Below, one piece after another: positions 10,434-32,990 of a DNA stretch of 41,334 nt (its first letter is position 1; each line of letters begins with the position of its first letter). Position numbers and translations under genes: made by a program. The notes under the pieces are model-generated. The model made no database searches. It had not been told where the DNA came from and saw nothing but the letters and a program-made list of their open reading frames with translations. The stretch comes from an uncultured Candidatus Saccharibacteria bacterium (GTDB taxonomy: Bacteria > Patescibacteriota > Minisyncoccia > Phycocordibacterales > PALSA-1337). The stretch lies in the NCBI GenBank assembly GCA_964349165.1, contig CAYGFL010000001.1, positions 1-41,334 of the forward strand, in the 5' to 3' direction.

Positions 10434-10436
10434 TTG

Positions 10437-12392: not shown

Positions 12393-12420
12393 ACAATTCT
12401 TATATCACACTTTCTTTCTA

Positions 12421-13701: not shown

Positions 13702-14866
13702 TTTTCTCTAGCTCCTCTCTCGCTATACGTGCATCATCCCAAGGTGTCTTCGTTCCTCGTGGTCCCATGATGTAGGGGTCTGTACCTTTGCCTGTGATGA
13801 GGACAACATCACCTTTCTGTGCTTTAGACATAGCTTCTCGGATGGCTTCTCGACGATCCATTATTATCTTTGGAGTTTTATTGACGATACCTTCTCTCAC
13901 ATCCGCAACTATTTTATCTGGATTTTCATCATAGGGATCTTCATCTGAGAGGATTATCTCATCACAATATGTATCGGCGATCTTTCCCATTTCTTTTCTT
14001 TTCCATGTGTCGCGTCCACCACCAGTTCCACCTAACACACAGATTTTTTTAGATTTTTTAAAAACTTTGTAAAGCTTTTCTAGAGAGTCTGTAGTGTGAG
14101 CGTAATCTACGACCACATCGAAATCCTGACCACATTTTACAAACTGCACTCTTCCTCTAATTTCTTTTAAATTAAGCACTGCCCGATTGATGATGTTATC
14201 GTCAATACCCAAGGTTCTAGCCAGAGTTACAGCTCCCAATACGTTGTATTTATTGAACTCTCCCAATAGGGAAGTCTCGGGTACAGTATCGCCCATACCG
14301 AATGTTTGCTGTACATCTACAGGGATAGCAAGAAATCTTTTACTCTCTGCATCATCTCTGTTCACCACTATTATCCTCGGCTTCTTTTTCGATATTGAAA
14401 GTTGTCTCGCGATATCTACCTTAGCTTCAATATAATTTTCATATGAGCCATGAGACTCTATATGTTCTGGAGAAAGATTTGTAAATATGAGAGCGTCCAA
14501 GTCTATGAATTTATGACGATATTGCGCTGAGCCTTGTGATGTCATCTCCATTATTACAAAATCACATTTTGCATTCACCGCTTTCCATAAAAATCTTTGG
14601 ATAAAAAAACGACCAGGCATAGACATCTTGTAGAGATTGTCTCTGGACTCATCACCAATTTTGAAACGGATGGTATTCGAAACAGCAGTTTTGTAACCAG
14701 CTTTTTCTAGTATTGAGTTTAATATTTCTGTTGTAGAACTTTTTCCTTTTGTCCCTGTCACTGCGATAACTTTTATCTTTCGTGAAGGGAAGCGGTAAAA
14801 TATTGTAGAGCCCATAGCCCAGAGGTAATGATATGTTTTGTAGAGTTTTTCCATTTTATTTTCCAA
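13670..14866 (-). CDS. murE: Mur ligase family protein, MurE-like (UDP-MurNAc-dipeptide/tripeptide ligase), no N-terminal domain
   Basis: VTGTKGKSST, MEMTSQG, FTNLSPEHIESHG, DYAHTTDSLEKL, GGTGGGRDTWKR, SDEDPYDENP. The start could be 14866 or 14854. Confidence 0.75.
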   Translation of the reverse strand: MENKMEKLYKTYHYLWAMGSTIFYRFPSRKIKVIAVTGTKGKSSTTEILNSILEKAGYKTAVSNTIRFKIGDESRDNLYKMSMPGRFFIQRFLWKAVNAKCDFVIMEMTSQGSAQYRHKFIDLDALIFTNLSPEHIESHGSYENYIEAKVDIARQLSISKKKPRIIVVNRDDAESKRFLAIPVDVQQTFGMGDTVPETSLLGEFNKYNVLGAVTLARTLGIDDNIINRAVLNLKEIRGRVQFVKCGQDFDVVVDYAHTTDSLEKLYKVFKKSKKICVLGGTGGGRDTWKRKEMGKIADTYCDEIILSDEDPYDENPDKIVADVREGIVNKTPKIIMDRREAIREAMSKAQKGDVVLITGKGTDPYIMGPRGTKTPWDDARIAREELEKIRSSSQNTSH

Positions 14867-15431
14867 GTATTTTTAGTGCCTCTTTTATTTTGTCATTTGT
14901 CTTCGTGAGAGTTTTCGGAATTTTTTTCAGAACATCTCGTGCTTCTGTCGGACTGTATCCCAGAGACTTCAGAGCTTCGAGTACATCTGCATCATTTTTC
15001 ATAGTCTGCTCTTGTTCTGGAGAGTGAGTCGTAGAGATCACCTTATCTTTCAACTCCATAACTATTTTTTCTGCGACTTTCTTCCCAATACCTGAAACTT
15101 TCGTCAGGTGAGCAGTCTCTCCAGTCTGGATGGCTGTTTCTAGAGAATGAACAGAGGCGACATTCAATATTCCCATAGCTGTCTTCGGACCGATGCCAGA
15201 TATCGTGATGAGTAATTCGAAAAAGTTTAGTTCTGCAAGAGAAATGAATCCATAAAGATCCAGAGCATTCTCTCGTACTGCAAGATACGTCCAGAGAGTG
15301 ACCGGCCCCTTTTTATCCAGTTTGACGAATATGTCTGGAGAGACGAAAACCTTGTAGCCGACACCCTGCACATCGAGAACGATGAACTTGGAGTCAGTAT
15401 GGGCTATAGAACCTGTAAGTCTGGATATCAT
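14856..15431 (-). CDS. ruvA: Holliday junction branch migration complex subunit RuvA
   Basis: MISRLTGSIAH...VLDVQGVGYKVFVS, HhH motifs ISGIGPKTAMGIL and VSGIGKKVAEKIV, C-terminal domain III. Confidence 0.9.
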   Translation of the reverse strand: MISRLTGSIAHTDSKFIVLDVQGVGYKVFVSPDIFVKLDKKGPVTLWTYLAVRENALDLYGFISLAELNFFELLITISGIGPKTAMGILNVASVHSLETAIQTGETAHLTKVSGIGKKVAEKIVMELKDKVISTTHSPEQEQTMKNDADVLEALKSLGYSPTEARDVLKKIPKTLTKTNDKIKEALKILGK

Positions 15432-15495
15432 AGGCTAATCATATACGAAACCTTGTGTTTTTTAAAGGCATGTGTTAATTTACACCTACACACAT

Positions 15496-15765
15496 ATGCC
15501 GATAACATCATCTGCAAAGAAAGCTCTCCGAGCAGGAGAAAGAAAGAGAGTACACAATCTCCGCACAAAGTCGGCTATCGATATTCCTATTAAGGCTTTC
15601 AAAAAGCTCGTTTCAGACAAAAAAATAGCGGAGGCAAAGGCCTTGGTCTCATCTATTTACAAGGCTCTCGATAAGGGTGCAAAAAGAAAATATATAAAGG
15701 CAAATACAGCATCTCGCTACAAGTCTCGCATAATGGCAGCGTTGAAGAGGGTGGAGGGAAAGTAA
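15496..15765 (+). CDS. rpsT: 30S ribosomal protein S20
   Basis: MPITSSAKKALRAGERKRVHNLRTKS... basic 89-aa protein. The ATG at 15496 lies within the longer ORF. Confidence 0.85.
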   Translation: MPITSSAKKALRAGERKRVHNLRTKSAIDIPIKAFKKLVSDKKIAEAKALVSSIYKALDKGAKRKYIKANTASRYKSRIMAALKRVEGK

Positions 15766-15790
15766 AAAAACCGGGATGACCGGTTTTTTT
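15764..15790. terminator. Intrinsic terminator after rpsT
   Basis: aaaaaaaccgg-gatga-ccggttttttt. Confidence 0.6.
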
Positions 15791-15799
15791 CTTAATCTG

Positions 15800-15871
15800 T
15801 GCTCCTGGTAGGAATCGAACCTACATTTCTCCCTTCGCAGGGGAGTGTCCTATCCATTGAACGACAAGAGC
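15800..15871 (-). tRNA. tRNA-Arg (anticodon GCG)
   Basis: GCTCTTGTCGTTCAATGGATAGGACACTCCCCTGCGAAGGGAGAAATGTAGGTTCGATTCCTACCAGGAGCA. Anticodon stem CTCCC/GGGAG, loop CTGCGAA. Confidence 0.9.
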
Positions 15872-15906
15872 GTCTGTATGCCTTCGTACATTAGCATGAC
15901 GTGAGA

Positions 15907-16365
15907 CTAAAATCCAAGCCTTTCTAGTACCTGTTGAGAAAGAGGCTCGTGGTGTTCTGTCTCTGCTATGTACTTCAGAAGAATCTGGCGAACATCTTCT
16001 CGATCCACCCCTTCAATATTTATAGTGATGTATGGCATAAAAGTTTTCGTAGATTTCAAAAGTATCGTGCTGTGCTCTCTATGAACATCAATCCAAAAAG
16101 ATTCGATGGTTAGAAAAGGGTAGAGGGTATCGTTTATGACGACACCACGGTCATTTATTTCTACATGCACTATTCCTGGTGTTCGGGATGCGTGTATAAC
16201 CAAAGAAAAAACTCCAACTAGAATGAGAATACCAAAGATAACATTACCAAAAATAAAAGCTAAAGAAGATGCGGTCAGAGTAATGATACCGACAGCCCAG
16301 TACCAGTCATTATTTTTTTCTGTATGATGATGTTCAGGAGCGTCCCAAGATATGAGGGGTTGCAT
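15907..16365 (-). CDS. Hypothetical membrane protein (two TM helices plus a soluble C-terminal domain)
   Basis: 152 aa. WYWAVGIITLTASSLAFIFGNVIFGILILVGVFSLVI hydrophobic hairpin. No family recognised. Confidence 0.55.
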   Translation of the reverse strand: MQPLISWDAPEHHHTEKNNDWYWAVGIITLTASSLAFIFGNVIFGILILVGVFSLVIHASRTPGIVHVEINDRGVVINDTLYPFLTIESFWIDVHREHSTILLKSTKTFMPYITINIEGVDREDVRQILLKYIAETEHHEPLSQQVLERLGF

Positions 16366-16613
16366 GGGGATATTATAGCATGAACCTTTTCCAAGTTAAT
16401 GGGGAATTACTACTCGGTTGACTTAATTATACTTCAATGATTAGATGTACCCATCATGCTTCTAACTAACTCGAAATCCATCTGGTCAGGTTTTTCCAAC
16501 TACGCACCTATTTTTTCTACGGAAAGGGTGTAGTGACTTTTGTATAAGAGTCAAAGACTGCCCTTTCCGGGGTAGTTTTGTTTACACATTAACAATCAAA
16601 AGGAGAAGGAAAA

Positions 16614-17390
16614 ATGATACGGACAGAAAGTTATTCAATCAGAATGGAAAATTCACTCATGATCTTCGAGACTCTGGAGATAAGTCCTGTATTGATCTCT
16701 GTGCCTCATGACGGATTGCCATTCCAAGCATTTTCGGGATTTTTTGAAACTAGAAAAATTGGTTATCGAGGTAGAGATCTATATGTGTGGCCAGTGGCAA
16801 AAGATATTCTTGTCTCTGCTACTGTCAATGCAATACGGGGACTGATGCCTCGAACGCTTGTCGACTACAATCGTGCATGGCCAGAAGGTATCAATTATTA
16901 CCCACTCACACAAAAGGAGGTTCACACAGCTCTCGATGATGTTAGGTTGGTGCAAGAATACCAACACTATCACGCATCGATTGATCGCATCTTGGATAAA
17001 TCAATCAAGAAGTTTGGGAGAGGGAAGACGCTTCTCATTGATCTTCATGGCTTCAGCAAACAACCACCATACGCCCCAGAGGGGGGCTACGATCTGATTC
17101 TAGGTACGGGAAACCGCATCAGTATCCCTTATGGAAATATCGATGAAATCTTGGCTGAACACATGATCAGTCGAGGCTACAAGGTTTTTTTGCCAAGAGA
17201 CACCAGTGTCGGTCCAGTGGAAGATTACTACAGTGCTGACTTCACCACTCGGCACCACTCAGAAAAGCACAACATCAATGCAATTCAAATCGAGATCGCT
17301 TCACGCTTTCGCAAGCAAGGCGCTCGTGAGCTCGGACAAAAACTCTCTCGAGATTTTGCTGAGTTTATACGGGAAAATTATTTGAAATGA
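16614..17390 (+). CDS. N-formylglutamate amidohydrolase (FGase)-family zinc hydrolase, tentative
   Basis: VLISVPHDG, TLLIDLHGF, NAIQIEI motifs. Strong SD AAAGGAGAAGG 5 nt upstream of the ATG. Confidence 0.5.
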   Translation: MIRTESYSIRMENSLMIFETLEISPVLISVPHDGLPFQAFSGFFETRKIGYRGRDLYVWPVAKDILVSATVNAIRGLMPRTLVDYNRAWPEGINYYPLTQKEVHTALDDVRLVQEYQHYHASIDRILDKSIKKFGRGKTLLIDLHGFSKQPPYAPEGGYDLILGTGNRISIPYGNIDEILAEHMISRGYKVFLPRDTSVGPVEDYYSADFTTRHHSEKHNINAIQIEIASRFRKQGARELGQKLSRDFAEFIRENYLK

Positions 17391-17436
17391 TAAAATAGTT
17401 CCTTTTAGTTAAAAATAAATTGTCGTTAAATTTTCT

Positions 17437-17461
17437 AGGAGCCTGACCAGCTCCTTTTTTA
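17437..17461. terminator. Intrinsic terminator between convergent genes
   Basis: aggagc-ctgacc-agctcct followed by TTTTTT. Confidence 0.5.
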
Positions 17462-17468
17462 ATTCCAA

Positions 17469-18050
17469 CTATCTCACCACCTGCTCAATCAACTCTGGAA
17501 ATTCCTCGGTTCCCATGTCGCCCAGAGTGTAATGTCCATGACCGCTCAACTCGATAATTTTTCCACCTATTACATCATGTATTATTTTTAGACTTCTTAT
17601 TCCATCTGGATCCTCGTCGTTTGCAGTAAATAAAGTTATCTCACCAACCCTATCTTTTATAGACGGATCGATTGGATGTGTATAAAATAATCGTCGAGCT
17701 TCATCATCTTCATCAGGCACTGCCCAAGGTGCAACGAGAATAAATTTTGCCACTTTCTTTTTTGATTCCCCAAGCCATCGAAGTAGAAAAGTGGTGCCAC
17801 AACTGTGACCTATGAGAATAGTATCTTCATTGACTTCTTGCTTTTCAAATTCTGCTTTGAATTTTTCATAAGAAGGTGACCACGGATCTGGCATCAGAGG
17901 GGTGGTGGTTGGTATGCCGAGTTTGGTCAAAGTATCCTTGGTCCAAGGTATCCAGTGTTTGTCATAAGTACGAGTCGCAGGATTCATAGCCCTTTCGGCA
18001 TTTGAGGGACAGCCGTGGATTATTATGCAGTTTGAGTTTTTGTCGAGCAT
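17469..18050 (-). CDS. Alpha/beta serine hydrolase, RBBP9/YdeN-like
   Basis: IIIHGCPSN...HWIPW...ILIGHSCGTTFLLRWL...FILVAPW. Nucleophile elbow GHSCG. Confidence 0.65.
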   Translation of the reverse strand: MLDKNSNCIIIHGCPSNAERAMNPATRTYDKHWIPWTKDTLTKLGIPTTTPLMPDPWSPSYEKFKAEFEKQEVNEDTILIGHSCGTTFLLRWLGESKKKVAKFILVAPWAVPDEDDEARRLFYTHPIDPSIKDRVGEITLFTANDEDPDGIRSLKIIHDVIGGKIIELSGHGHYTLGDMGTEEFPELIEQVVR

Positions 18051-18104
18051 GTTTATTTATGTAAAAATTGATTTTAAATTTTGGCGGAGGACCGTTGGAC
18101 GCTG

Positions 18105-19013
18105 TTAAGGCTTGGTATGTAACAATGTCGCAATAAATGGAGATCCTGTGTCTAAGAGGGTAAAGGAACAGCCAGTTTTCTCTAATTCATCTATTAATGT
18201 TTCCTTGGTGTACCGAAGCGACTGGAATACAAGGAGTTTATCGTACTTTTTAATTCCAAGTGCGTCGAGCTCGGTGTTTGTGGTAAGTAGAGAGGTCCAG
18301 ACTTTTACGTCATCTGTCGCCTCGCGAGGGGTGAGATCCTTATCGGGATCGAGACCGATTAATTTTAATTTTTCATCTGCCATATGAACTGCATCAATCG
18401 CATAGGCTTGTTGTAGCTCAACCATGTTTGTACGGTCTCTCATGTGGGCATTTATAAAAACAAATCCGTTTTCGCCAGCAATATCTCGGAGTAGTTTTAT
18501 AATATCTTGCGGAGCATAATTTGAAAATGTTAGGCCAAGGCTTACAAAACGGGGAAGGGTGCTTTTCCCAAGCTTCTCAGCAAGTTCTTCGAAGGATGAT
18601 TGGATCGTTCGAACTGTAATTCCTTGCTGGGTAGCGTGCGTCTCAGCAAGTTCAAGATAGTCAGTATTAATGTCGATGGGAATGTAGGTAAATTTTTTCC
18701 CCTGCGCAGCAAGCTCATCAAAAAGGAATTGTTCCTTGTGTTCGGTACCTGGTCCGAGATCAATAAATTCAAAATTAGTAGGTAATTGAGTTGCCACATC
18801 TTTGGCGATCGAAAAAAGATATTCTCTCTCGGGTTTGGTGACGATTGTGTAGTATGGAGAATCGGTATTTTGGAGAGTTGCGTAATGGTCTACTTCAGAG
18901 GGAAGATAGAGTAAAAGAGAGTCACTGTAATCCCAATTTCCATCACTTATTTTTTTAATTGACTCAAATGCTCTCCTCTTAAACCATTCTTTGTTGTATG
19001 TTGCTTCAGGCAT
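18105..19013 (-). CDS. EgtD-like (Methyltransf_33) SAM-dependent methyltransferase, tentative
   Basis: FEFIDLGPGTEHKEQFLFDEL...YIPIDINTDYL...LGLTFSNY...LRYTKETLIDELEKTG. The only ATG downstream of the tRNA overlap is at 19013. Confidence 0.5.
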   Translation of the reverse strand: MPEATYNKEWFKRRAFESIKKISDGNWDYSDSLLLYLPSEVDHYATLQNTDSPYYTIVTKPEREYLFSIAKDVATQLPTNFEFIDLGPGTEHKEQFLFDELAAQGKKFTYIPIDINTDYLELAETHATQQGITVRTIQSSFEELAEKLGKSTLPRFVSLGLTFSNYAPQDIIKLLRDIAGENGFVFINAHMRDRTNMVELQQAYAIDAVHMADEKLKLIGLDPDKDLTPREATDDVKVWTSLLTTNTELDALGIKKYDKLLVFQSLRYTKETLIDELEKTGCSFTLLDTGSPFIATLLHTKP

Positions 19014-19018
19014 TTTTT

Positions 19019-19108
19019 TGGCGGATGGGGTGAGATTCGAACTCACGGCCCCCTTACGAGGGCGACGGTTTTCAAGACCGTTGCCTTAAACCACTCAGCC
19101 ACCCATCC
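19019..19108 (-). tRNA. tRNA-Ser (anticodon UGA), CCA encoded
   Basis: GGATGGGTGGCTGAGTGGTTTAAGGCAACGGTCTTGAAAACCGTCGCCCTCGTAAGGGGGCCGTGAGTTCGAATCTCACCCCATCCGCCA. Long variable arm. Confidence 0.9.
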
Positions 19109-19166
19109 TTGTGTTGAGATAATCTCACATTTTGCTTACATTTTCAACTTAGAGTACACTTTCCTC

Positions 19167-19544
19167 ATGAGACTTCTAGGAATTGACTACGGATCAAAGA
19201 GGGTAGGTATTGCTTTATCAGATGAAGCAGGACAGTTTGCCATACCCCTCGTTGTGCTGAATACACGAGAGAACCTGCTAGAGGAAATAGTAGATATTGC
19301 AAAGGAGAACAAAGTAATCAGTATAATAATAGGAGAATCAAAAAACTACAAAGGTGAACCAAATACTATAATGTCCGAAAGTATAAATCTCAAAAAAGAC
19401 CTAGAAACTAAAGGTTTCAAAGTTCATTTCGAACCAGAATTCATGACGAGCGCTCATGCCGAGAAATTGCAAGGAAAACATGATATGCTCGATGCATCAG
19501 CCGCCGCACTTATTTTACAAAGCTATTTAGATAAGAAAAAATAA
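19167..19544 (+). CDS. ruvX: Putative pre-16S rRNA nuclease / Holliday junction resolvase-like YqgF (RuvX)
   Basis: MRLLGIDYGSKRVGIALSD..., 125 aa. Confidence 0.85.
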   Translation: MRLLGIDYGSKRVGIALSDEAGQFAIPLVVLNTRENLLEEIVDIAKENKVISIIIGESKNYKGEPNTIMSESINLKKDLETKGFKVHFEPEFMTSAHAEKLQGKHDMLDASAAALILQSYLDKKK

Positions 19545-19545
19545 T

Positions 19546-19875
19546 ATGATAACAATCGAAGATTTTTCCAAAGTAGAAATCCGAGCAGGCAAGATACTAT
19601 CTGCAGAAAAAATTCCTGATACAGATAAGTTGCTCAAGCTCATGGTGGACCTCGCTGAACCTACACCGAGGCAGATCGTATCTGGTATTTCTCTGTATTT
19701 TCCTGATCCTGCTGTTCTCGTCGGAAAAACTGCAATGTTTGTAACAAATCTCGAGCCGAGGATGATAAAAGGGTACGAGAGCAACGGCATGCTCTTCGCG
19801 GTATCTACACCTGAAGGTAAATTCTCACTTCTCGAACCGAACCCAGATATACCACCTGGTACAAAAGCAAAATAA
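19546..19875 (+). CDS. tRNA-binding domain protein (CsaA/EMAP-II-like OB fold)
   Basis: FSKVEIRAGKILSAEKIPDTDKLLKLMVDL...QIVSGI...LEPRMIKGYESNGML. Confidence 0.8.
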   Translation: MITIEDFSKVEIRAGKILSAEKIPDTDKLLKLMVDLAEPTPRQIVSGISLYFPDPAVLVGKTAMFVTNLEPRMIKGYESNGMLFAVSTPEGKFSLLEPNPDIPPGTKAK

Positions 19876-19878
19876 AAT

Positions 19879-20511
19879 ATGACGCTCGTAGATATAATAA
19901 AAATATTACTCGATCCTCAAGAAGTAGTCGTAATCCTAGGACTTGTCGGTGTTATCGCAATTATTTTTGCAGAGACAGGACTCTTCTTCGGATTCTTTTT
20001 ACCTGGAGACTCACTACTTTTCACAGCAGGATTCCTGGCGTCACAGGATCTACTTCCACTTTTTCCACTTCTCGTAGGCACACTCATCGCGGCGATAGTG
20101 GGGGATAGTATAGGGTATTGGTTCGGGAAAAAGACTGGTCCAGCTATTTTCTCTCGAGAGGATTCATTTTTTTTTAGAAAAAAACATGTAGAAAGCGCAC
20201 GCGTCTTCTATGAAAAACACGGAAAGATGACTATTATACTTGCACGCTTCATACCTGTTATACGAACCTTTGCGCCGATAGTGGCAGGAGTCGCTAGTAT
20301 GAACTATCGAGTGTTCATTTCTTACAATATTATAGGTGGTTTCATCTGGACTATCGGACTGACGCTCACAGGATACTTCCTAGGACGAAGTATTCCAAGT
20401 GCAGACGCGTACCTTTTACCTATAGTATTACTCATAACTCTAGTCTCATTCATGCCGGGAATTGTACACATATTACGTGAAAGGAAAAATCGCAAAAATA
20501 TAGTACAATAG
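19879..20511 (+). CDS. DedA-family membrane protein
   Basis: GLFFGFFLPGDSLLFTAGFLA...GYWFGKKTG...HGKMTIILARFIPVIRTFAPIVAG. Confidence 0.85.
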   Translation: MTLVDIIKILLDPQEVVVILGLVGVIAIIFAETGLFFGFFLPGDSLLFTAGFLASQDLLPLFPLLVGTLIAAIVGDSIGYWFGKKTGPAIFSREDSFFFRKKHVESARVFYEKHGKMTIILARFIPVIRTFAPIVAGVASMNYRVFISYNIIGGFIWTIGLTLTGYFLGRSIPSADAYLLPIVLLITLVSFMPGIVHILRERKNRKNIVQ

Positions 20512-20536
20512 AGGACATAAGGTCACAAAAAGCGTT

Positions 20537-21541
20537 ATGTTCGCCCAAAAGTTTTTTACATTATTTCCTCCACCAGCTTTTTTAAATATTCCGTACGCCG
20601 GACTAGATATTTCTGATGACGCAGTGCGTTGTGTCGCACTCTCGAAAACCTCACATGGTATGGTGGTTCACCGTTTCGGTATGAAGCCTTTATCTAACGG
20701 AATAATGGAGGGTGGTGAGATAAAAGATCCGAAGGCTTTGTCGGAAACCATCACCGAACTTGTAAGAGAGCTAGGTGTGCATGTGGTGAAGGCTTCTCTA
20801 CCAGAAGAAAAGATGTACCTTTTCAAAACTACTGTGCCGAGCACAGATCAAAAGGAGATGCGTCAGAATATTGAGTTTAAACTTGAGGAAAATGTGCCAC
20901 TATCTAGAGCAGAATCCATTTTTTTCTTTGACCCTATTCCATCTATCTCGACCAATCTCGCTACACAAACAGGGACCACCGAAGACTTGGTAAGTGTATC
21001 CGTAGCTCCACGTAGCCTGGTGCTCTCATATTTAGAAACTATAAAATCTGCTGGCGTGACTGTGTTGTCTTTCGAGATGCAGGCGAAAGCTATCGCTCGA
21101 GCGCTGATCCCTACAGGTTCTAGAGATACAGAGATGATCGTGCATATTATGGATAATAAAACTGGTATATATATAGTCTGTGGTGGAGTAGTATGCTTCA
21201 CTTCCACCATTCCTTCTGGTTACAAGATGGCACTCGATGAAAAGAGCTCGCAAGTCGTGATAGATGAATTGAAAAAGAGTATTCGACAGGTCGAGAGCTA
21301 TTGGGTAGAGCATGGAAATGGTACAGCCGTCACAGGGGTCGTCTTTTCTGGACAAGGAGCAACGACAAATGGTCTCGTCTCCCAATGTTCCGCGAGTTTG
21401 TCTGGAACAGGTGACAACAAGATACGTTTCGATATCGGCAATGTCTGGCAGAACGCCTTTTCTTCTGACAGATACATTCCGCCGATTTCGTATGATGATT
21501 CACACGGATATGTGACTGCTGTAGGTCTAGCTCTACGATAA
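20537..21541 (+). CDS. pilM: Type IV pilus assembly protein PilM-like (actin-like ATPase fold)
   Basis: 334 aa. GLDISDDAVRCVAL N-terminus, gene order with two downstream bitopic proteins. Confidence 0.6.
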   Translation: MFAQKFFTLFPPPAFLNIPYAGLDISDDAVRCVALSKTSHGMVVHRFGMKPLSNGIMEGGEIKDPKALSETITELVRELGVHVVKASLPEEKMYLFKTTVPSTDQKEMRQNIEFKLEENVPLSRAESIFFFDPIPSISTNLATQTGTTEDLVSVSVAPRSLVLSYLETIKSAGVTVLSFEMQAKAIARALIPTGSRDTEMIVHIMDNKTGIYIVCGGVVCFTSTIPSGYKMALDEKSSQVVIDELKKSIRQVESYWVEHGNGTAVTGVVFSGQGATTNGLVSQCSASLSGTGDNKIRFDIGNVWQNAFSSDRYIPPISYDDSHGYVTAVGLALR

Positions 21542-21556
21542 ATATCAAAAGATAAA

Positions 21557-22114
21557 ATGATTCACTACACACTTTTACCAAGAGAAGAAATGAAGGAATT
21601 GCGCAAGGAATATCGCATCCGCCTTTTTATAATCACATCCTTCTTCTTCTCTATAGTTTTCATGTTCGGTATCATCGCTCTAATACCCTCGTATGTTTCG
21701 ACTCAACTTCAAGAAAAAGAATCCGTTGGTAGAAAAGAAGAACTTCAAAAAAACAGAAAGGCAAGTGGAGCAGACGAGATCGAGAAGGATCTCCTACAGA
21801 GTCAGGCTATTGCGAGCAGGATCGTCGCTCACGAAGACTCGACTACACACTCGAACATTATACAGAGCATAATCTCGTATCGATCGAGACAGATAACACT
21901 CTTGTCTTTCGAAGTCGCGAGGGCCACCGGTACCAGCACTCCCTGGACTGTGATAATCCAGGGCAAATCTGCCAGTCGAGAAGCACTTCTGGAGTTCAAA
22001 AAGGGACTAGAGAATAGCGCGCTCTTTTCACAAGTAGAACTGCCTCTATCAGATCTTGCGAAGAGCAAGAATATAGGCTTCAGTATAAGAGTAGTATTGC
22101 GCCAAAACAAATAA
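21557..22114 (+). CDS. pilN: PilN-like bitopic membrane protein
   Basis: 185 aa, single N-terminal TM (LFIITSFFFSIVFMFGIIALIP), position after pilM. Confidence 0.45.
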   Translation: MIHYTLLPREEMKELRKEYRIRLFIITSFFFSIVFMFGIIALIPSYVSTQLQEKESVGRKEELQKNRKASGADEIEKDLLQSQAIASRIVAHEDSTTHSNIIQSIISYRSRQITLLSFEVARATGTSTPWTVIIQGKSASREALLEFKKGLENSALFSQVELPLSDLAKSKNIGFSIRVVLRQNK

Positions 22115-22118
22115 TCAT

Positions 22119-22649
22119 ATGTATACCAACCACCGACATTATATACTCATAATCTTCGCAATCATCACTCTCGCTGTGTCTGTATTCGGATTTGTATTTC
22201 TTCGCGACCTCATATATTCGCGAGCCGTGACATCTGCTAAGATCGCTAGGGAAGTTAGCCAGATAGATGAACAGAATAAGCATGAGAGTGACATCACCAG
22301 CATATACGATAAATCATCCGAGCAGAGGAGGCTTCTCGATAGTTTCATCGTTCCGAAAGAGAAGATCGTAGACCTCATCGAATCTATAGAGAAGATAGGT
22401 GTGGATACATCTACAGATCTCGAGCTGTCTAGTATCACTAACCAAGAGTCGAAGGATGACAAGACGAGCCAATTCCAAGCGCACGTCGATGTAAAAGGGA
22501 CATGGACAAATATCATGCGCTCTCTCATACTCATAGAAGGATTGCCATATAGTGTGTCGATAAATAATACTCGACTCATAAAGTCTGGAGATTCCAAATC
22601 AAGCCAATGGGAGTTGTCTCTAGACTTGAGAGTCCTAACTGGAAAATAA
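22119..22649 (+). CDS. pilO: PilO-like bitopic membrane protein
   Basis: 176 aa, N-terminal TM (ILIIFAIITLAVSVFGFVFL) followed by a coiled-coil segment, position in the pil cluster. Confidence 0.4.
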   Translation: MYTNHRHYILIIFAIITLAVSVFGFVFLRDLIYSRAVTSAKIAREVSQIDEQNKHESDITSIYDKSSEQRRLLDSFIVPKEKIVDLIESIEKIGVDTSTDLELSSITNQESKDDKTSQFQAHVDVKGTWTNIMRSLILIEGLPYSVSINNTRLIKSGDSKSSQWELSLDLRVLTGK

Positions 22650-22660
22650 TATATACAAAT

Positions 22661-22951
22661 ATGCAGACGATAAAAATAATTAAAGAGATCGGACGCAACC
22701 CACATATTGATTGGGTATTTGTACTTTTCATAAGTCTGATTATTTTCGTCACACTTGGTTTTTTTAGCGTCACCCTTTACAAAGACGTAACTAACGGTAG
22801 TATTCAGGTTGGTGAAGTGCCTTCCAGCACTTCATTTAAAAAGATCAATGAAAAGACGATCACAGACGTTATAGAGAAGTTCTCTGATAAAGAGGAGTTG
22901 AGTCGAGAAGCGAGAAGGGGATATAGTGGTGAGACAGACCCTTCGATATAG
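22661..22951 (+). CDS. Small bitopic membrane protein, last gene of the pil cluster
   Basis: 96 aa from the ATG at 22661. TM WVFVLFISLIIFVTLGFFSVTL. Confidence 0.4.
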   Translation: MQTIKIIKEIGRNPHIDWVFVLFISLIIFVTLGFFSVTLYKDVTNGSIQVGEVPSSTSFKKINEKTITDVIEKFSDKEELSREARRGYSGETDPSI

Positions 22952-22985
22952 TATTCGTTGTAAGTTGAGTTAAGTCTTAGAAAAT

Positions 22986-23057
22986 GCCCTCGTAGTTCAA
23001 TGGATAGAACTGCGGACTTCTAAGCCGTCGATGTTGGTTCGATTCCAACCGAGGGCA
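22986..23057 (+). tRNA. tRNA-Arg (anticodon UCU)
   Basis: GCCCTCGTAGTTCAATGGATAGAACTGCGGACTTCTAAGCCGTCGATGTTGGTTCGATTCCAACCGAGGGCA. Loop CTTCTAA. One A31/G39 mismatch in the anticodon stem. Confidence 0.8.
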
Positions 23058-23062
23058 CAAAT

Positions 23063-23386
23063 ATGAGTAATCTAAATCTAAAAAATAATCCCACACTTGC
23101 TGATTTTCAGAACTATGTTGCAGAAATGGTAAAGGAACGTGGCTTTGATAAAGAAACAGTGCCGGAAATGTTTATGCTCTTTCTTGAAGAGTGTGGCGAG
23201 CTGGCGAAAGCGGTTCGAAAGACTCAGAATATACAGACTGATAAAAATTCGGAGAAGTTTAAGCTCGAAGGAGAGGCTGCCGATGTATTCATTTATCTTT
23301 TAGATATTTGTAATCACCTGGGTGTGGATTTGGAAAAGGCTTTTCGAGACAAAGAGGAAATCAACAAGAAGAGGTCTTGGGAATAA
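23063..23386 (+). CDS. MazG-like nucleotide pyrophosphohydrolase
   Basis: TLADFQNYVAEMVKERGF...LFLEECGELAKAVRK...EAADVFIYLLDICNHLGVDLEKAF. Confidence 0.8.
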   Translation: MSNLNLKNNPTLADFQNYVAEMVKERGFDKETVPEMFMLFLEECGELAKAVRKTQNIQTDKNSEKFKLEGEAADVFIYLLDICNHLGVDLEKAFRDKEEINKKRSWE

Positions 23387-23401
23387 CTGCTACTGCTCGA
23401 T

Positions 23402-24067
23402 TTACCTAATTATTAATTCCTTTAATCTCTCAATCCATCCTAAGATAGTAAGTTTAAGTTTTGTATCGCACACACAGATATCTAATGTCCCGAATGGGAG
23501 AGTCCTTCTCTTCTGCAGACTTGCCGAACTCGGCTTAGTATAAGTTTTATAGAATTGCTTCCTTGGTATGCCGGTAATATCCGACCAATATTTCTCTGTT
23601 TTTTCTATGTCCGCATGGGAGAAAGTATGAATGTGTCCGCGAAATTTATTTTCTGGGACCAGACATATTTCTCTTAAAAATCTCATCATTATTTGAATAA
23701 TTGACGGGTCACTATTTGCTATTGAAACTACTCCCTGACTCTTCTTCGCCCCTTCGCCTATATACAGAGCAATTCCTATGAGTTTTAATTCCTGTATTGA
23801 AATACCAGTGAAATCTTTCTTCGCATTATCCATCACCACCTTTCTTTTTGCACCTTCATTTGCAAGACGACTAGCCCTCCTTCTCTCTACTGATTCCACA
23901 CTCCTTCCTCTTTGTGATAATTTCCCCAGTTGCCTTTTTGTAAGTACAATATCCCGTACCCAGACACTTACGCTTGCCTTCGAAAAATTTAAAGCCTCAA
24001 CGATTTGATTAATCGAATATCCTTTTTTACGTAAAGCTCGAGCACGCTCTTTCTCAGCAAGTTTCAT
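23402..24067 (-). CDS. HTH plus LAGLIDADG-like (homing-endonuclease-like) protein, free-standing
   Basis: N-terminal resolvase-type HTH ARALRKKGYSINQIVEALNFSKASVSVW. Then LKLIGIALYIGEGAKK...VSIANSDPSIIQIMMRFLREI, resembling a single LAGLIDADG (GEG variant) core. Confidence 0.5.
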   Translation of the reverse strand: MKLAEKERARALRKKGYSINQIVEALNFSKASVSVWVRDIVLTKRQLGKLSQRGRSVESVERRRASRLANEGAKRKVVMDNAKKDFTGISIQELKLIGIALYIGEGAKKSQGVVSIANSDPSIIQIMMRFLREICLVPENKFRGHIHTFSHADIEKTEKYWSDITGIPRKQFYKTYTKPSSASLQKRRTLPFGTLDICVCDTKLKLTILGWIERLKELIIR

Positions 24068-24120
24068 TAGTAGAGTATATCATATATAATATATTCTATA
24101 TAGGTCTAGTAATTTTTACC

Positions 24121-24149
24121 TTGAGTTTTAGTATCCATTGGTGTATAAA
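24121..24149 (+). promoter_or_regulatory. Putative promoter of the tRNA-Val / rluA-like / rplS / tRNA-Leu / tRNA-His unit
   Basis: TTGAGT (24121-24126), 17-nt spacer, TATAAA (24144-24149), 10 nt before tRNA position 1. Confidence 0.45.
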
Positions 24150-24159
24150 TACCCTGTAT

Positions 24160-24232
24160 GCGCCCTTAGCTCAGTTGGTAGAGCAGCCGCTTTACACGCG
24201 AATGGTCGGGGGTTCGAGTCCCTCAGGGCGCA
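24160..24232 (+). tRNA. tRNA-Val (anticodon UAC)
   Basis: GCGCCCTTAGCTCAGTTGGTAGAGCAGCCGCTTTACACGCGAATGGTCGGGGGTTCGAGTCCCTCAGGGCGCA. Good acceptor, D and T arms. The anticodon stem has only 3 Watson-Crick pairs (27:43 and 28:42 mismatched). Confidence 0.7.
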
Positions 24233-24234
24233 CA

Positions 24235-25005
24235 ATGGATGTTTCTATGAAAATCCCTATTCTCTACGAAGATAAAGATATCCTCGCGGTCGACAAACCT
24301 GCAGGTTTGGTCGTGCATCCAGACGGTAAGACGAAAGAGCCAGCACTCACAGACTGGATATTAGAAAATTATCCAAAGACGAAAAATGTCGGTGAAGTCA
24401 TCGAAACAAAAGAAAATGGGACAATACAGAGACCCGGAATAGTTCATCGTCTCGACAGAGGAACTTCTGGCGTGCTTCTCATTGCAAAAACAAAGAAGGG
24501 TCACGAAACTCTCAAAGAACAATTTCAAAACCAGCTTATCAAAAAAAAGTATTACGCGTTTGTGCATGGAGATATGAAAGAGACATACGGGATCATCGAT
24601 AAGCCGATAGGGAAGAGTCCGCGAGACTTCCGTAGATGGTCCGCAGGACGTGGAGCGAGAGGAGAGATGAGGCCAGCAGAGACATGGTGGACACTGTTGT
24701 GTTACGAACGAGGGGTTGGTGGAGGATATTCTTTTGTAGAGATAGAACCGAAGACCGGTCGCACTCACCAGATCCGTGTCCATTTCAAGGCTGTACAGCA
24801 CCCTGTAGCTTGCGATGAACTATATGCGAGAGATAAGGGTTGCGAGTTGGGATTAGAGAGAACTGCTCTGCACGCTTCATCTATAACATTTACGAATTGC
24901 CTTGGCAAAAAAGTGACAGTGAAGTCTCCATTGCCGAAAGACTTTATAAAAGCGTTGAAAGACCTCCATATGACAGAAGTTGCTAAAAAGAAGGGCGTAT
25001 GTTAG
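24235..25005 (+). CDS. RluA-family pseudouridine synthase (no S4 domain)
   Basis: ILYEDKDILAVDKPAGLVVHP, HRLDRGTSGVLLIAKT, GRTHQIRVH. Start at 24235 or 24247. The upstream ORF portion is the tRNA-Val gene. Confidence 0.85.
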   Translation: MDVSMKIPILYEDKDILAVDKPAGLVVHPDGKTKEPALTDWILENYPKTKNVGEVIETKENGTIQRPGIVHRLDRGTSGVLLIAKTKKGHETLKEQFQNQLIKKKYYAFVHGDMKETYGIIDKPIGKSPRDFRRWSAGRGARGEMRPAETWWTLLCYERGVGGGYSFVEIEPKTGRTHQIRVHFKAVQHPVACDELYARDKGCELGLERTALHASSITFTNCLGKKVTVKSPLPKDFIKALKDLHMTEVAKKKGVC

Positions 25006-25031
25006 ATTTGTTCCACTAAATAGTAAACAGC

Positions 25032-25466
25032 ATGGCAACGAATAAAGACATTTTAACAGCAGTAAATGTAGATGAACGCAAGGCACTAAGCCTCCGTTCT
25101 GGTGATACTGTGCGCGTATGGCAGAAGATAAAGGAAAAAGATAAGACAAGACTACAAGCCTTCGAAGGACTCGTCCTTTCTCGTAAACACGGCACAGAAG
25201 CCGGCGCCACTTTCACAGTACGAAAAGTGATGGACGGTGTAGGAGTTGAAAAAATCTTTCCAATATATTCTCCAGTTATAGATAAGATAGAGGTATTGCG
25301 ACGTTCGAAAGTGCGAAGAGCGAAACTCTACTTCGTGCGAGAAAAAGCAGCAAAAGAAATCCGACGTCAGATGAGACGAATGCTAGTTCTAGAACCAGGG
25401 ATGAATACGGATACGAAGATTGCAGCAGCGGTGTCCGAAGAAAAGAAAGAAGAGGTGGTAGCCTAG
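25032..25466 (+). CDS. rplS: 50S ribosomal protein L19 with a C-terminal extension
   Basis: [33 protein letters not shown]...[41 protein letters not shown]. Confidence 0.9.
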
Positions 25467-25482
25467 TGTATAATTGGAACAT

Positions 25483-25567
25483 GCTCGGGTGGCGAAACTG
25501 GCTAGACGCACTACCTTGAGGTGGTAGCGGCCGCAAGGCTATGGAGGTTCGAGTCCTCTCCCGAGCA
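25483..25567 (+). tRNA. tRNA-Leu (anticodon GAG)
   Basis: GCTCGGGTGGCGAAACTGGCTAGACGCACTACCTTGAGGTGGTAGCGGCCGCAAGGCTATGGAGGTTCGAGTCCTCTCCCGAGCA. Long variable arm. Confidence 0.9.
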
Positions 25568-25640
25568 CAAGATTTTTCGTATCATCTACCACCCTCGTCA
25601 GGTGTGGAGAATTGTGATATAAATTGAGGGTAAGTTATAT

Positions 25641-25712
25641 GGTGCCTATAGCTTAGTGGTAAAGCTCCGACCTGTGGCGTCGGCTACGAGAGTTCAATTC
25701 TCTCTAGGCACC
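25641..25712 (+). tRNA. tRNA-His (anticodon GUG) with encoded G-1
   Basis: G-GTGCCTATAGCTTAGTGGTAAAGCTCCGACCTGTGGCGTCGGCTACGAGAGTTCAATTCTCTCTAGGCACC. G-1 lies opposite C73. Confidence 0.9.
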
Positions 25713-25861
25713 CATTTTAAGATTTCTCAAAAACAGCTTTTATTGTACACACTTGGTGTACAGGGTTTAGTAATTGTAAAGTTTCACTAGAAAACTTTAC
25801 ATTCGGATAATGATGTATTAGTATCTTCCATAGAGTTTTAACCTCAACCCCCTTGAAAACA

Positions 25862-30602: not shown

Positions 30603-32096
30603 ATGAAATGGGGCAATTTCCTACATATCTATCAGCCGGCAGACCAGCAGAGAGATATACTCGAAGCGATCGTTGTCCAATGTTATAGACCGCTCATCTC
30701 ACATATCGCAGAGACTCCGAATATCAAAGTCACTTTCAATATCACAGGAGCACTCCTAGAACTTTTCGATAAATACGGCTACCGAGATCTCATCGATATG
30801 CTACGTACGGCAGGAGAAGAAGGGAAGATCGAGTTCACTGGATCTGCCAAATACCATGGTTTCTTGCCTCTTTTAGATGAGGAAGATATACGTCGCCAGA
30901 TCGAGATAAATAATGAAACACTGATTCACTATCTAGGAAAAGACTGTAAACCAAAAGGATTTTTTCCTCCTGAGATGGGCTATGATCCGAAGATATTACC
31001 AATAGTCGAATCTCTAGGTTTCGAATGGATTATTCTAGACGAAATAGCTCTCAATGGGGAACCTGGTTCTGTGGACTACACGAAGATATATAAAATAAAA
31101 GATTCAAATTTAAAAGTTTTTTTTCGAGAGAGACGCTTGAGCAATCTCATAATGAGCGCGGTTGTGAGATCGCCAGAGACTCTTCGTGAGGCGATGAAAG
31201 ATGAATTGCAGAGTCCTAGATACATAGTTACCGCGATGGATGGGGAAACATTCGGTCATCATAGACCAGGATTGGAGAAATTACTTTTTAATATTTTTGA
31301 GACGAAAGATTTCAATCTTGTCACGATTTCTGAACTTTTGAAAGATTATAAAAATGAAGAGGAGATATCACCGATCATGTCTACATGGGCAAGTAGCAGA
31401 GAAGATATCGAAAAGGGAATACAGTTCCTCTCTTGGAAAGATCCGGAAAACTCTATTCACACTTGGCAGTGGGAGTTGTTCCATCTAGCACGCACGAATG
31501 TAGAAAGTCTGGATACAGGAAGTCCTGTGTATGAGGAGATAAAACACAGGATGGATGTGGGTACAGCGAGCGACCACTTCTGGTGGGCATCTGCGAAGCC
31601 TTGGTGGAGTCTCGAGATGATAGAAGATGGAGCATACAGGCTTCTCGACACCATACGCGCGATTCCCAAGGTTTCTCCAGAGATAATTATCAAAGCTCGC
31701 GATCTATATGAAAAAATTATTTCAACCGCTTTCAACTGGCAACGCACAGGACGTATACGTTCAATGATGATGGAACAGAGATCTATTTTACGCATTCCAT
31801 TTAAAGATCGCACGATAGGGAAAGGGGGCGCAGAGGAAGGGGTCTACCATGCCTTCATGGATATGATGAAACGATTGGAAAAAGAGGCAATCGAACGTCG
31901 TGAATATGAGAAAGCCATACTCTGGAGAGATGCTATGTATAAATTGGAAAACAAGCTCGATATCTACGATACGATAAATGCAATAGATCTAGTACGTATA
32001 GAAATACCAAACAAAGAAGTAGAGGAGATAATAGAAAAATATAAAGAAAAATATCGTTCAATACGAGGCGGACAACCAGAGCAGAGGGGGAGTTAG
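30603..32096 (+). CDS. Glycoside hydrolase family 57 protein with a C-terminal UVR (UvrB/UvrC-motif)-like helix
   Basis: NFLHIYQP (HQP-type motif), FFPPEMGY (nucleophile Glu region), TAMDGETFGHH (acid/base Asp region). C-terminal ERREYEKAILWRDAMYKLENKL. Confidence 0.75.
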   Translation: MKWGNFLHIYQPADQQRDILEAIVVQCYRPLISHIAETPNIKVTFNITGALLELFDKYGYRDLIDMLRTAGEEGKIEFTGSAKYHGFLPLLDEEDIRRQIEINNETLIHYLGKDCKPKGFFPPEMGYDPKILPIVESLGFEWIILDEIALNGEPGSVDYTKIYKIKDSNLKVFFRERRLSNLIMSAVVRSPETLREAMKDELQSPRYIVTAMDGETFGHHRPGLEKLLFNIFETKDFNLVTISELLKDYKNEEEISPIMSTWASSREDIEKGIQFLSWKDPENSIHTWQWELFHLARTNVESLDTGSPVYEEIKHRMDVGTASDHFWWASAKPWWSLEMIEDGAYRLLDTIRAIPKVSPEIIIKARDLYEKIISTAFNWQRTGRIRSMMMEQRSILRIPFKDRTIGKGGAEEGVYHAFMDMMKRLEKEAIERREYEKAILWRDAMYKLENKLDIYDTINAIDLVRIEIPNKEVEEIIEKYKEKYRSIRGGQPEQRGS

Positions 32097-32101
32097 ACAA
32101 C

Positions 32102-32127
32102 AAAAAACCGCTTCAGCGGATTTTTGT
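32102..32127. terminator. Weak bidirectional terminator-like hairpin after the GH57 gene
   Basis: aaaaaaccgc-ttca-gcggatttttg. Only a 4-bp GC stem, flanked by an A-run and a T-run. Confidence 0.35.
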
Positions 32128-32216
32128 TGAATATACCTGATGGTCGTTTCTCCTCCCTCGACAATGCTGGTATTATATTCCAATTATATGTCAAAGTCAA
32201 CAAACATTCATTCCTG

Positions 32217-32284
32217 TGGAGGTGAGGGGAGTCGAACCCCCATACCCATCTTGTCGAAGGAGGATATCCGACCTTGGCACCCCC
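32217..32284 (-). ncRNA. tRNA-like RNA resembling a tmRNA tRNA-like domain (TLD): acceptor stem with G3:U70, T-arm, no anticodon loop
   Basis: GGGGGTGCCAAGGTCGGATATCCTCCTTCGACAAGATGGGTATGGGGGTTCGACTCCCCTCACCTCCA. Acceptor GGGGGTG/CACCTCC, A73, T-arm GGGGG-TTCGACT-CCCCT. The 10-nt single-stranded D-region includes GG. The central hairpin ATATCC..CTT-CGAC-AAG..GGGTAT is capped by a tetraloop. Confidence 0.45.
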
Positions 32285-32311
32285 ACAGGTAAAAATGTTC
32301 GTTCAAGATGG

Positions 32312-32317
32312 ATTATA
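32312..32317 (-). promoter_or_regulatory. Consensus -10 hexamer (TATAAT on the minus strand) upstream of the tRNA-like RNA
   Basis: Minus strand reads ttaTATAATc, 27 nt upstream of G1 of the tRNA-like element. Confidence 0.3.
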
Positions 32318-32327
32318 TAAAAACGAA

Positions 32328-32371
32328 ATGAAGAAACGATGAAGAAGTTATGAAGAATCGATGAAGATTCG
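32328..32371. repeat. Four tandem 11-bp direct repeats ATGAAGAAnnn
   Basis: ATGAAGAAACG (32328), ATGAAGAAGTT (32339), ATGAAGAATCG (32350), ATGAAGATTCG (32361). Exact 11-bp phasing, non-coding position. Confidence 0.85.
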
Positions 32372-32426
32372 GTAAAAATGTAGTTATGCAATACAAAAAC
32401 CTATTATCACAAGAGCACTTTGTATG

Positions 32427-32990
32427 TTAGAAGAAAGATTTTTTCTCTATCTTAGCTTCAGGTACCTTCTTGTAATTCGGATTTTTGACTAGAGTAGGTT
32501 CACCATTACTATCAACCACATAGTACGCAGCTCCATGCAGTTTTCTAAATGGCTCATAGTCTGCATGCCCAGGCATGCTCACAGGATCTGCATCAGAGAA
32601 GTTCACAGGACTATCATCAGAAGTTACTAGCCAAGTTTTACCAGTGTTAATTGCTAGATGACCAGTATTTTTAGGTATATGTACGCTATCACCCGCCTTA
32701 ACTTTTATAGCTTCAAAACTTACTATTTCATCATCAGAAGATCCTCGTTCTTGAAGAATAATAATACCTTCACCATGCAATATGTTATAAGTCTCCTCTA
32801 GATCACCCACATGGTAGTGTCCGTAGGTTTTAATATATTCTCCTCCAATAGTTCCAGATTCCCATACTGTGATATTACTTTTGTCACTTCCACCACGGAT
32901 CATGTGATAGTGGATGTCAGGTCCACTAGCATCTGGATTCATCAGTACTTCTTTCATCTTCTCGTGAGTCCTCTCTGCATATGGTTTCAT
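32427..32990 (-). CDS. Cupin-type (archaeal-type) glucose-6-phosphate isomerase
   Basis: 187 aa. TYGHYHVGDLEETYNILHGEGIIILQ...VHIPKNTGHLAINTG, matching the cPGI TxGHxH...E metal-site pattern. Confidence 0.7.
   Translation of the reverse strand: MKPYAERTHEKMKEVLMNPDASGPDIHYHMIRGGSDKSNITVWESGTIGGEYIKTYGHYHVGDLEETYNILHGEGIIILQERGSSDDEIVSFEAIKVKAGDSVHIPKNTGHLAINTGKTWLVTSDDSPVNFSDADPVSMPGHADYEPFRKLHGAAYYVVDSNGEPTLVKNPNYKKVPEAKIEKKSFF

Follow-up and report, generated by a model that had tools for sequence, protein, structure and literature searches.

Genes for transfer-messenger RNA (tmRNA) that consist of the tRNA-like domain (TLD) only, without the coding sequence (CDS) of the tag, are a rare kind, already known from phage DS6A, from organelles and from three Patescibacteria entries of the tmRNA database. 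In total, this database (2025) holds 79 phage tmRNAs and nine CDS-less forms, the latter being its 'Standard, no CDS' sequences (PMC11915505). Here we describe a 68-nt gene (hereafter the element) on the minus strand of contig CAYGFL010000001.1 from an uncultured Candidatus Saccharibacteria bacterium (GenBank assembly GCA_964349165.1). The whole stretch of DNA that was analysed, positions 1 to 41,334 of this contig, is called the window. The element is very probably a TLD-only gene of the tmRNA type, and a predicted gene for a small antisense RNA directed at it follows downstream.

The CDS-less entries of the database come from Patescibacteria (3, including 9FT-COMBO-53-11 sp001772805), from Nasuia and from plastids of Mallomonadaceae (~65 bp). 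Among 6,765 Patescibacteria genomes, the 'Standard NoCDS' form was recorded in 3 and the standard tmRNA in 5,252 (78%), while one group of the phylum 'may lack tag reading frames' (PMC11915505). Compared by their description only, the 'Standard, no CDS' entries resemble the element in being short or CDS-less, in their standard order and in including the same phylum; they differ in that a one-sentence mention reports neither a partner RNA nor insertion behaviour (PMC11915505). The tmRNAs of jakobid and oomycete mitochondria (RF02544; PMC1370551, PMC3849159) likewise have a tRNA-like domain without a tag frame and are thought to use SmpB, but they are usually circularly permuted, organellar and vertically inherited, and RF02544 scored below the canonical family RF00023 on the element in clan competition. 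The initial annotation of the locus had named jakobid mitochondria as the precedent, which was right as to the kind and too narrow as to its range, phage DS6A, plastids and the three Patescibacteria entries belonging to it as well (PMC11915505).

The mini-tmRNA of DS6A was located at JN698994 28478-28557. It shares with the element a standard-order acceptor, a D-loop analogue, a single hairpin, a T-arm and the lack of a tag frame, and both align globally to the Rfam tmRNA model with the middle deleted (43.2 bits for DS6A, also below the gathering score, vs 29.4 bits for the element). Yet the DS6A gene is 80 nt long, phage-borne, of the GGUCGAC type at its motif and has no downstream antisense partner, whereas the element of the window lies on a Patescibacterium chromosome, shows GGUCGG at this place and is accompanied by a leader-trailer helix and a gene for an antisense RNA. 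With canonical ssrA (RF00023), the element has in common the acceptor with G3:U70 and A73, the T-arm, a D-loop analogue with GG and a helix located where ssrA has P2; in contrast to the ~350 nt of ssrA, its 68 nt contain no pseudoknots, resume codon, tag open reading frame (ORF) or stop codon.

As to the antisense gene, the nearest systems are the istR-1/tisB and orzO/zorO pairs (type I toxin-antitoxin systems) and the RNA-RNA pairs (type VIII), in which a neighbouring antisense gene has its own promoter and terminator. Regulators of the istR-1/tisB kind carry a 5'-terminal antisense segment of 12-35 nt with partial complementarity, and their distribution is patchy and cassette-like. The antisense RNAs of type I systems target a toxin mRNA, whereas the target in the window is a tRNA-like non-coding RNA. 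No published description of a tRNA-like or tmRNA-like RNA paired with an antisense RNA was found in the literature searched; nor does that literature mention the pairing with an antisense gene, the helix of leader and trailer or the behaviour as a cassette, which are new in this sense.

Structure of the element

The element and its flanks are composed as follows.

32217..32284, minus strand: whole 68-nt gene, probably a TLD-only tmRNA-like gene (matches to Rfam tmRNA and to model R1; homologue L249)
32284-32278, minus strand: acceptor 5' strand GGGGGTG, pairing with 32224-32218 (sequence)
32277-32268, minus strand: D-region or D-loop analogue CCAAGGTCGG, in RNA form CCAAGGUCGG (sequence)
32267-32242, minus strand: hairpin ATATCC/TC/CTT/CGAC/AAG/AT/GGGTAT (sequence)
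32241-32225, minus strand: T-arm GGGGG-TTCGACT-CCCCT (sequence)
32224-32218, minus strand: acceptor 3' strand CACCTCC (sequence)
32217, minus strand: discriminator A73 (sequence)
32285..32299, minus strand: 5' leader, extending the acceptor helix by pairing with the 3' trailer (inverted-repeat search; covariation with L249)
32203..32216, minus strand: 3' trailer, beginning with CA, partner of the leader (inverted-repeat search; comparison with the window tRNAs)

The RNA read from 32284 to 32217 is GGGGGUG-CCAAGGUCGG-(AUAUCC UC CUU CGAC AAG AU GGGUAU)-GGGGG UUCGACU CCCCU-CACCUCC-A. Every structural part that the initial annotation had listed (acceptor with G3:U70, A73, T-arm, D-region and hairpin) was found in the sequence where it had been placed. 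The acceptor stem has 7 bp (G1:C72, G2:C71, G3:U70 and G4:C69 among them) and is followed by A73. The D-loop analogue comprises 10 unpaired nt with two GG pairs, reading GGUCGG, and the position of the anticodon arm is occupied by a single hairpin with a 4-nt loop on a 3-bp stem. There is no sequence left for pseudoknots PK1-PK4 or for helix 5. The neighbouring gene does end at 32427, as had been noted, and leaves no room for a tag frame.

As previously reported for this locus, CCA is not encoded; CA directly follows the discriminator. Such a lack is normal for this genome, because six of the seven window tRNAs (spread over 10436-25713 of the 41 kb) have no encoded CCA either, and all six continue with CA. 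The acceptor helix is prolonged by the flanks. A 12-bp helix with ccugu/acagg had been proposed, and the prolongation is real but its extent was underestimated: the inverted-repeat search gave arms of 22 nt (32203-32224 and 32278-32299) with 82% complementarity.

Class assignment by covariance models

A sensitive Rfam search was run over positions 31900-32700 (801 nt). At the element, tmRNA (RF00023) was the top family of the tRNA clan with 29.4 bits and an E-value of 5.8e-10. The alignment spans model positions 1-374, both ends included, 25 nt standing for 326 internal positions, and the hairpin contained therein has no ORF. At routine settings nothing was called at the element: ARAGORN found seven tRNAs and no tmRNA in the window, and Rfam at its gathering threshold found six tRNAs.

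When IMG/VR was scanned with a pattern of closely spaced acceptor and T-arm, the matches listed included many genes of 55-79 nt that have, besides GGNUUCGA(C/U), a single hairpin, a linker of the GAC type and a T-arm, CCA being frequently encoded. From 24 distinct viral mini elements only, and without the element of the window, a covariance model (R1) was built. Across these 24 sequences, compensatory changes occur in two acceptor pairs, in all four hairpin pairs and in three T-arm pairs. Model R1 gave 40.9 bits on the window element (E-value of 2.7e-6 in 213 kb), 49.4 bits on the DS6A mini-tmRNA, 40.0 bits on the homologue L249 and 43.4 bits on a further related locus, L252, while the true tRNAs of the window reached at most 18.2 bits. 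In structure, the element therefore falls among the TLD-only tmRNAs rather than the tRNAs. The architecture first proposed for it, a TLD without an mRNA-like domain, is borne out by these models together with the DS6A comparison.

A permuted, two-piece tmRNA (RF04321) was also considered and rejected. It scored 17.4 bits (E-value of 0.28), with GGAGGAG as 5' strand, a mismatch and A3:U70, and in L249 it is equally unsupported, no equivalent complement to its acceptor strand being present there.

A structurally conserved homologue

A metagenome scan limited to GGTCGG returned ten loci, one of which, L249 (Ga0302320_10003106, 3521-3588), is a true homologue of the element and has the same length of 68 nt. 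Its first 17 nt, its 3' acceptor strand and its A73 are identical to those of the element, and the flanks cctgt...cagg are common to both. The hairpin of L249 differs in sequence but is built alike, with 6 bp and then 3 bp on either side of a small internal loop and a tetraloop as its cap. In the gapless alignment of the two sequences, 93% of the cells pair, vs 50-65% when the partners are slid. Six pairs are changed on both sides; the hairpin accounts for four of these and the leader-trailer helix, which in L249 measures 28 nt at 82% complementarity (22 nt in the window), for the other two. Together with the Rfam match and the R1 score, this conserved structure shows that the element is not a product of chance.

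L249 belongs to another Patescibacterium, where its neighbours encode RNase HII, a NUDIX protein, an HD hydrolase, L32, NusB, RNase III and SMC; the RNase III protein of that genome is only ~52% identical. The two genomes are not syntenic at the locus of the element.

A predicted small antisense RNA gene downstream of the element

Some 50 nt downstream of the element, and overlooked in the initial annotation, a predicted RNA of ~64 nt lies between a strong promoter and a terminator. The corresponding features are the following.

32172..32200, minus strand: promoter P2, TTGACT-17 nt-TATAAT, 11/12 consensus positions (promoter scan)
32102..32165, minus strand: predicted ~64-nt small RNA, 'anti-TLD', with predicted ends (P2, terminator and complementarity)
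32098..32129, both strands: hairpin of a bidirectional terminator, flanked by runs of A and T (inverted-repeat search)

The terminator hairpin has 15-nt arms, 93% complementary and 2 nt apart, and is not in the output of the terminator scan. It would end the small RNA and, on the opposite strand, the GH57 operon. The core of the small RNA, TTGTCGAGGGAGGA (32164-32151), is complementary to positions 21-34 of the element, a match that none of 100 shuffles attained. Around this core, the extended antisense arm 32173-32142 forms with 32242-32273 an inverted repeat of 32 nt at 75% complementarity. The antisense stretch corresponds to the 5' ~30-45 nt of the small RNA, set against the 5' half of the element. 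The single mismatch within the core is U·G as transcribed but would be A·C in the opposite strand, which weakly favours RNA pairing over a repeat acting at the DNA level. This gene presents what is found in antisense regulators, i.e., a neighbouring position, a promoter and terminator of its own and significant complementarity.

The same layout is found in L249, where the complementarity tracks the hairpin of that locus (TATCCTCGCCAG with CTGGCGAGGATG) and the inverted repeat measures 27 nt at 85%; a repeat of 35 nt at 83% is present in L247, a high-GC, phage-like contig. The predicted duplex energy was -45.8 kcal/mol in the window against a shuffle mean of -28.6 (sd 4.1), -55.4 kcal/mol in L249 against -35.1 (sd 5.2) and -67.3 kcal/mol in L247 against -52.0 (sd 5.8), values equalled or surpassed by 1, 1 and 3 of 300 shuffles, respectively. 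Then, 183 distinct elements were screened for antisense segments on both flanks. A z-score of at least 4 was obtained in six of 179 downstream tests (L247, L249, the window, L198, L186 and L125) and in none of the 177 upstream tests. In the window, L249, L247 and L186, the antisense segment begins at the predicted +1 and the RNA ends in a terminator. L249, L247 and L186 each have a box equivalent to the -10 of P2 in front of that segment, the last of these, an IMG/VR contig, having the order -10 box, antisense segment, terminator.

No Rfam family matched the downstream RNA, even at E-values up to 10. Its reading as a detached mRNA-like piece was rejected, because the RNAs of the window and of L249 share no ORF, resume codon or stop codon.

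Two further observations concern these sequences. The 3' part of the small RNA, UCAACAAAAAU (32120-32130), also complements positions 32197-32207, at the end of the trailer and in the -35 region (11 nt, 91%), which is not the case in L249. Besides, the hairpin of the element (32256-32264, minus strand) contains CCUCCUU, the anti-Shine-Dalgarno core of 16S rRNA, and the antisense RNA (32151-32160) carries GGGAGGAG; L249 retains this match only in part (UCCUCG / CGAGGA).

Upstream promoter region

Two further features lie 5' of the element.

32312..32317, minus strand: -10 box TATAAT of promoter P1, 27 nt 5' of G1 (sequence; likewise in L249)
32328..32366, minus strand: four CTTCAT repeats with an exact period of 11 bp, 5' of P1 (sequence)

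The TATAAT box that had been reported 27 nt upstream is indeed there (32317-32312), at exactly 27 nt from G1, and L249 has TATAAT at the identical distance. P1 has no good -35 box and is not among the matches of the promoter scan. The CTTCAT array is probably phased T-rich or curved DNA, or else an array of binding sites, and may serve as an UP-like element. Phased T-tracts occur at the equivalent place in L249.

Genome context and insertion of the unit

The element sits in a gap of 330 bp between the convergent genes for GH57 (30603-32096) and GPI (ending at 32427). The genes of the window are cellular (a phosphorylase/HAD fusion, glycogen synthase, GH57, a cupin-type GPI, DsbA, VKOR and ribosomal protein L19), and beyond the window the source contig, 84.6 kb long in an ENA assembly, runs into tuf and the S10/spc ribosomal operons. 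The GH57 homologues are labelled Paceibacterota, Zambryskibacteria or Patescibacteria. A phage origin of the window was rejected, as no match to phage records was obtained and the genes, from glycogen metabolism and DsbA/VKOR to tuf with the ribosomal operons, are those of a cell.

In relatives with a 77-81% identical GH57, the GH57 and GPI genes are two bases apart or overlapping (L004, P0028) or separated by two other genes (L002, L003), and the element is absent from the same site in all the relatives compared. Similarly, in relatives of the L249 genome (HD protein 86-88% identical), the stop codon of the HD gene leads straight to the rpmF promoter where L249 has ~340 extra bases, and model R1, run without filters on these loci, gave no match. 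The ~330-bp unit is an insertion, absent at the same sites from the closest relatives in two lineages. No target-site duplication or terminal repeats were seen around it. Because the relatives lack the element, conservation of the locus cannot serve as evidence. In the comparison with related genomes that the initial annotation had recommended, the element is missing from the closest relatives, and its structure is kept in L249 through compensatory changes.

No canonical ssrA was found in the ~51 kb read (the window and 10 kb beyond). As for smpB, no SmpB domain was detected in the 18 window ORFs scanned, and none in the further 10 kb of the contig. A gene for RNase III lies at 366-1049.

Other features of the contig are noted here in passing. 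Between tRNA-Arg (22986-23058) and tRNA-Val (24160-24233), the minus strand encodes at 23402-24067 a protein of 221 aa whose sole recognised domain is a helix-turn-helix of the resolvase type (HTH_7, HTH_23); a mobile element may have left it behind. About 8 kb past the end of the window (L261, 20233-21141), a 302-aa gene without Pfam match stands between rplE (L5) and rpsH (S8) in the spc operon, the usual place of rpsN (S14). Two GH57 homologues (P0093 and P0094), 70% identical to the product of 30603-32096, were named 'ribosome-associated translation inhibitor RaiA' by JGI, which looks like a misannotation.

Related mini elements elsewhere

On viral contigs (IMG/VR), TLD-only mini-tmRNA genes of 55-79 nt are common among the matches listed (loci L125-L244 and L263-L367), examples being L192 2015-2078, L127 842-904 and L170 4019-4081. 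Within the first 100 viral loci, 84 matches to model R1 had an E-value of at most 0.001. These genes lie mostly outside tRNA clusters, a few of them abutting tRNAs (L132, L154, L183). In genome contigs, a scan with a loose acceptor/T-arm pattern was dominated by class II tRNAs (Ser, Tyr and Leu, with GGAGGGG acceptors), and at least three mini-TLD-like loci were retrieved. Mini-TLD-like genes of ordinary bacterial contigs include L048 1587-1664, from a metagenome-assembled genome of the Spirochaetaceae (44.5 bits with R1), L106 5098-5165 (36.3 bits) and L013 2105-2180 from Nocardioides taihuensis (21.5 bits).

Five metagenome loci (L245, L246, L250, L251 and L253) carry a 76-nt variant, GGGGGUGGAUUGGGUCGGG..., with 12 nt in common upstream (gtgcctccgatg), ~42 bits with R1 and no antisense partner. 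Genes of 66-70 nt without a D-arm, with G3:U70 and 7-nt anticodon-like loops, were found at L206 7755-7823, L224 5691-5759, L247 912-978, L252 27-94 and L186 12931-12996. Their anticodon-like triplets are CUA (L206), UUA (L224, a tRNA-Stop for ARAGORN), GUC (L247), UAU (L252) and CCU (L186). Judging from their sequences, they may be suppressor or miscoding tRNAs inserting alanine, or variants of the TLD.

Discussion

Taking the structure, the antisense gene and the insertion together, we infer as the most likely reading, with moderate confidence, that the element is an acquired mimic of tmRNA that binds SmpB and alanyl-tRNA synthetase (AlaRS) and is accompanied by an antisense off-switch. It would be the first gene of a protein-free, two-RNA cassette of ~330 bp between two convergent metabolic genes. 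Its precursor would be trimmed in the way of a tRNA, by RNase P at G1 and then at the 3' end, before addition of CCA, and both SmpB and AlaRS, the latter reading G3:U70 and A73, could recognise the trimmed element. Because there is neither a resume codon nor a stop codon, trans-translation could not be completed, and competition is expected rather than full rescue. Hence, the element would mainly compete for SmpB and stalled ribosomes or serve as a decoy for them, or it would at most add one alanine; it may also be a tag-independent rescue factor. The antisense RNA would pair with the acceptor 5' strand, the D-loop analogue and the hairpin, and the tRNA-like shape would be unfolded, the duplex probably being exposed to RNase III. 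By such an unfolding, the cassette would carry its own off-switch. According to the passages of PMC4131195 that cite Mao 2009, and to PMC11915505, tmRNA is strongly inhibited in E. coli by a molecule that has only the TLD, 'perhaps acting by titrating SmpB'. A decoy role towards SmpB and AlaRS would fit these published data.

Several results weigh against this picture. The 29.4 bits of the element are under the gathering score of RF00023 (47). Where the window and L249 read GGUCGG, the 24 viral mini elements have the motif UUCGA, conserved to at least 90%, and binding of SmpB is uncertain because this near-invariant UUCGA of viral minis and of tmRNA is missing. The free minimum-energy fold of the element (-28.0 kcal/mol, z of only -0.79) pairs the D-region with the T-arm instead of giving the tRNA-like fold, which when imposed has -24.2 kcal/mol. 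The 22-nt leader-trailer helix, in which A73 is paired, could hinder RNase P. The covariation between the window and L249 was drawn from two sequences, a single close homologue having been found. Finally, an antisense partner was found neither at DS6A nor at most viral mini elements, so that antisense pairing is not general to the TLD-only class.

The element could instead be the only tmRNA of the organism, having lost the tag part and rescuing with one alanine as proposed for jakobid mitochondria, while the antisense RNA tunes its level. The absence of a canonical tmRNA from the window and the 10 kb beyond would agree with this, as would the existence of 'Standard NoCDS' entries in Patescibacteria (PMC11915505) and a promoter context like that of a stable-RNA gene, with phased repeats upstream. 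We nevertheless regard it as unlikely: only ~51 kb of the genome were read, 78% of Patescibacteria assemblies have a standard tmRNA (PMC11915505), similar cassettes occur on viral contigs and, unlike an essential housekeeping gene, the unit is missing at the same site from the closest relatives in two lineages. That the element is a dead remnant, i.e., an internally deleted ssrA or a mobile-element fragment without present function, seems quite improbable. A score below the Rfam gathering threshold, a non-canonical D-loop analogue and a patchy distribution are what such a remnant might display. However, L249, in a genome whose RNase III is ~52% identical, keeps length, ends, flanks and, via four compensatory pairs, the hairpin; both copies keep the -10 box at 27 nt and a partner RNA that tracks the hairpin sequence; and the relatives' site contains no ssrA from which the element could have decayed. 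The decayed ssrA that the initial annotation had envisaged is therefore disfavoured, because the inserted unit has promoters of its own and a structurally conserved homologue elsewhere.

A still slightly less probable explanation is that the inverted repeat works as DNA, either forming the two arms of a small mobile element or serving a recombinase as inversion site, RNA pairing being incidental. The unit does behave as an insertion and its arms of 27-35 nt would suit such a role, but they are imperfect (75-85%) and interrupted by internal loops, and the core mismatch is U·G on the transcribed strand. Moreover, neither the window nor L249 has a recombinase or transposase next to the unit, a target-site duplication cannot be seen, and the second arm is precisely framed by a promoter and a terminator. 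It is very unlikely that the element is an unusual decoding tRNA of alanine identity without a D-arm. Such an idea is suggested by the related loci L252, L247 and L186, whose 66-68-nt genes have anticodon-like 7-nt loops of the form CU-NNN-(A/C)A. In contrast, the hairpins of the element and of L249 have a 4-nt loop on a 3-bp stem without anticodon-loop signature, and neither ARAGORN nor Rfam called a tRNA at the element.

Coming back to the acquired tmRNA mimic, a bolder extension of it can be proposed, possible though rather doubtful. The ~330-bp unit would be a horizontally moving two-RNA module, in which the mimic diverts or poisons trans-translation by absorbing SmpB, with or without alanylation, and the antisense RNA is the antidote or timer; phages and ultra-small bacteria would use it as an addiction, defence or host-takeover device. 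If true, this would be the first RNA-RNA module directed at ribosome rescue.

Trans-translation is the main route of ribosome rescue in bacteria, and the role of CDS-less tmRNAs has so far rested on few sequences. Since the element comes with a built-in antisense partner and with clear promoter and terminator signals, direct experiments are possible on this bacterial example. Standard annotation (ARAGORN, or Rfam at the gathering score) overlooks all such TLD-only genes. Since viral contigs carry many distinct ones, interference of phages with ribosome rescue may be far commoner than the one published case, DS6A, suggests.

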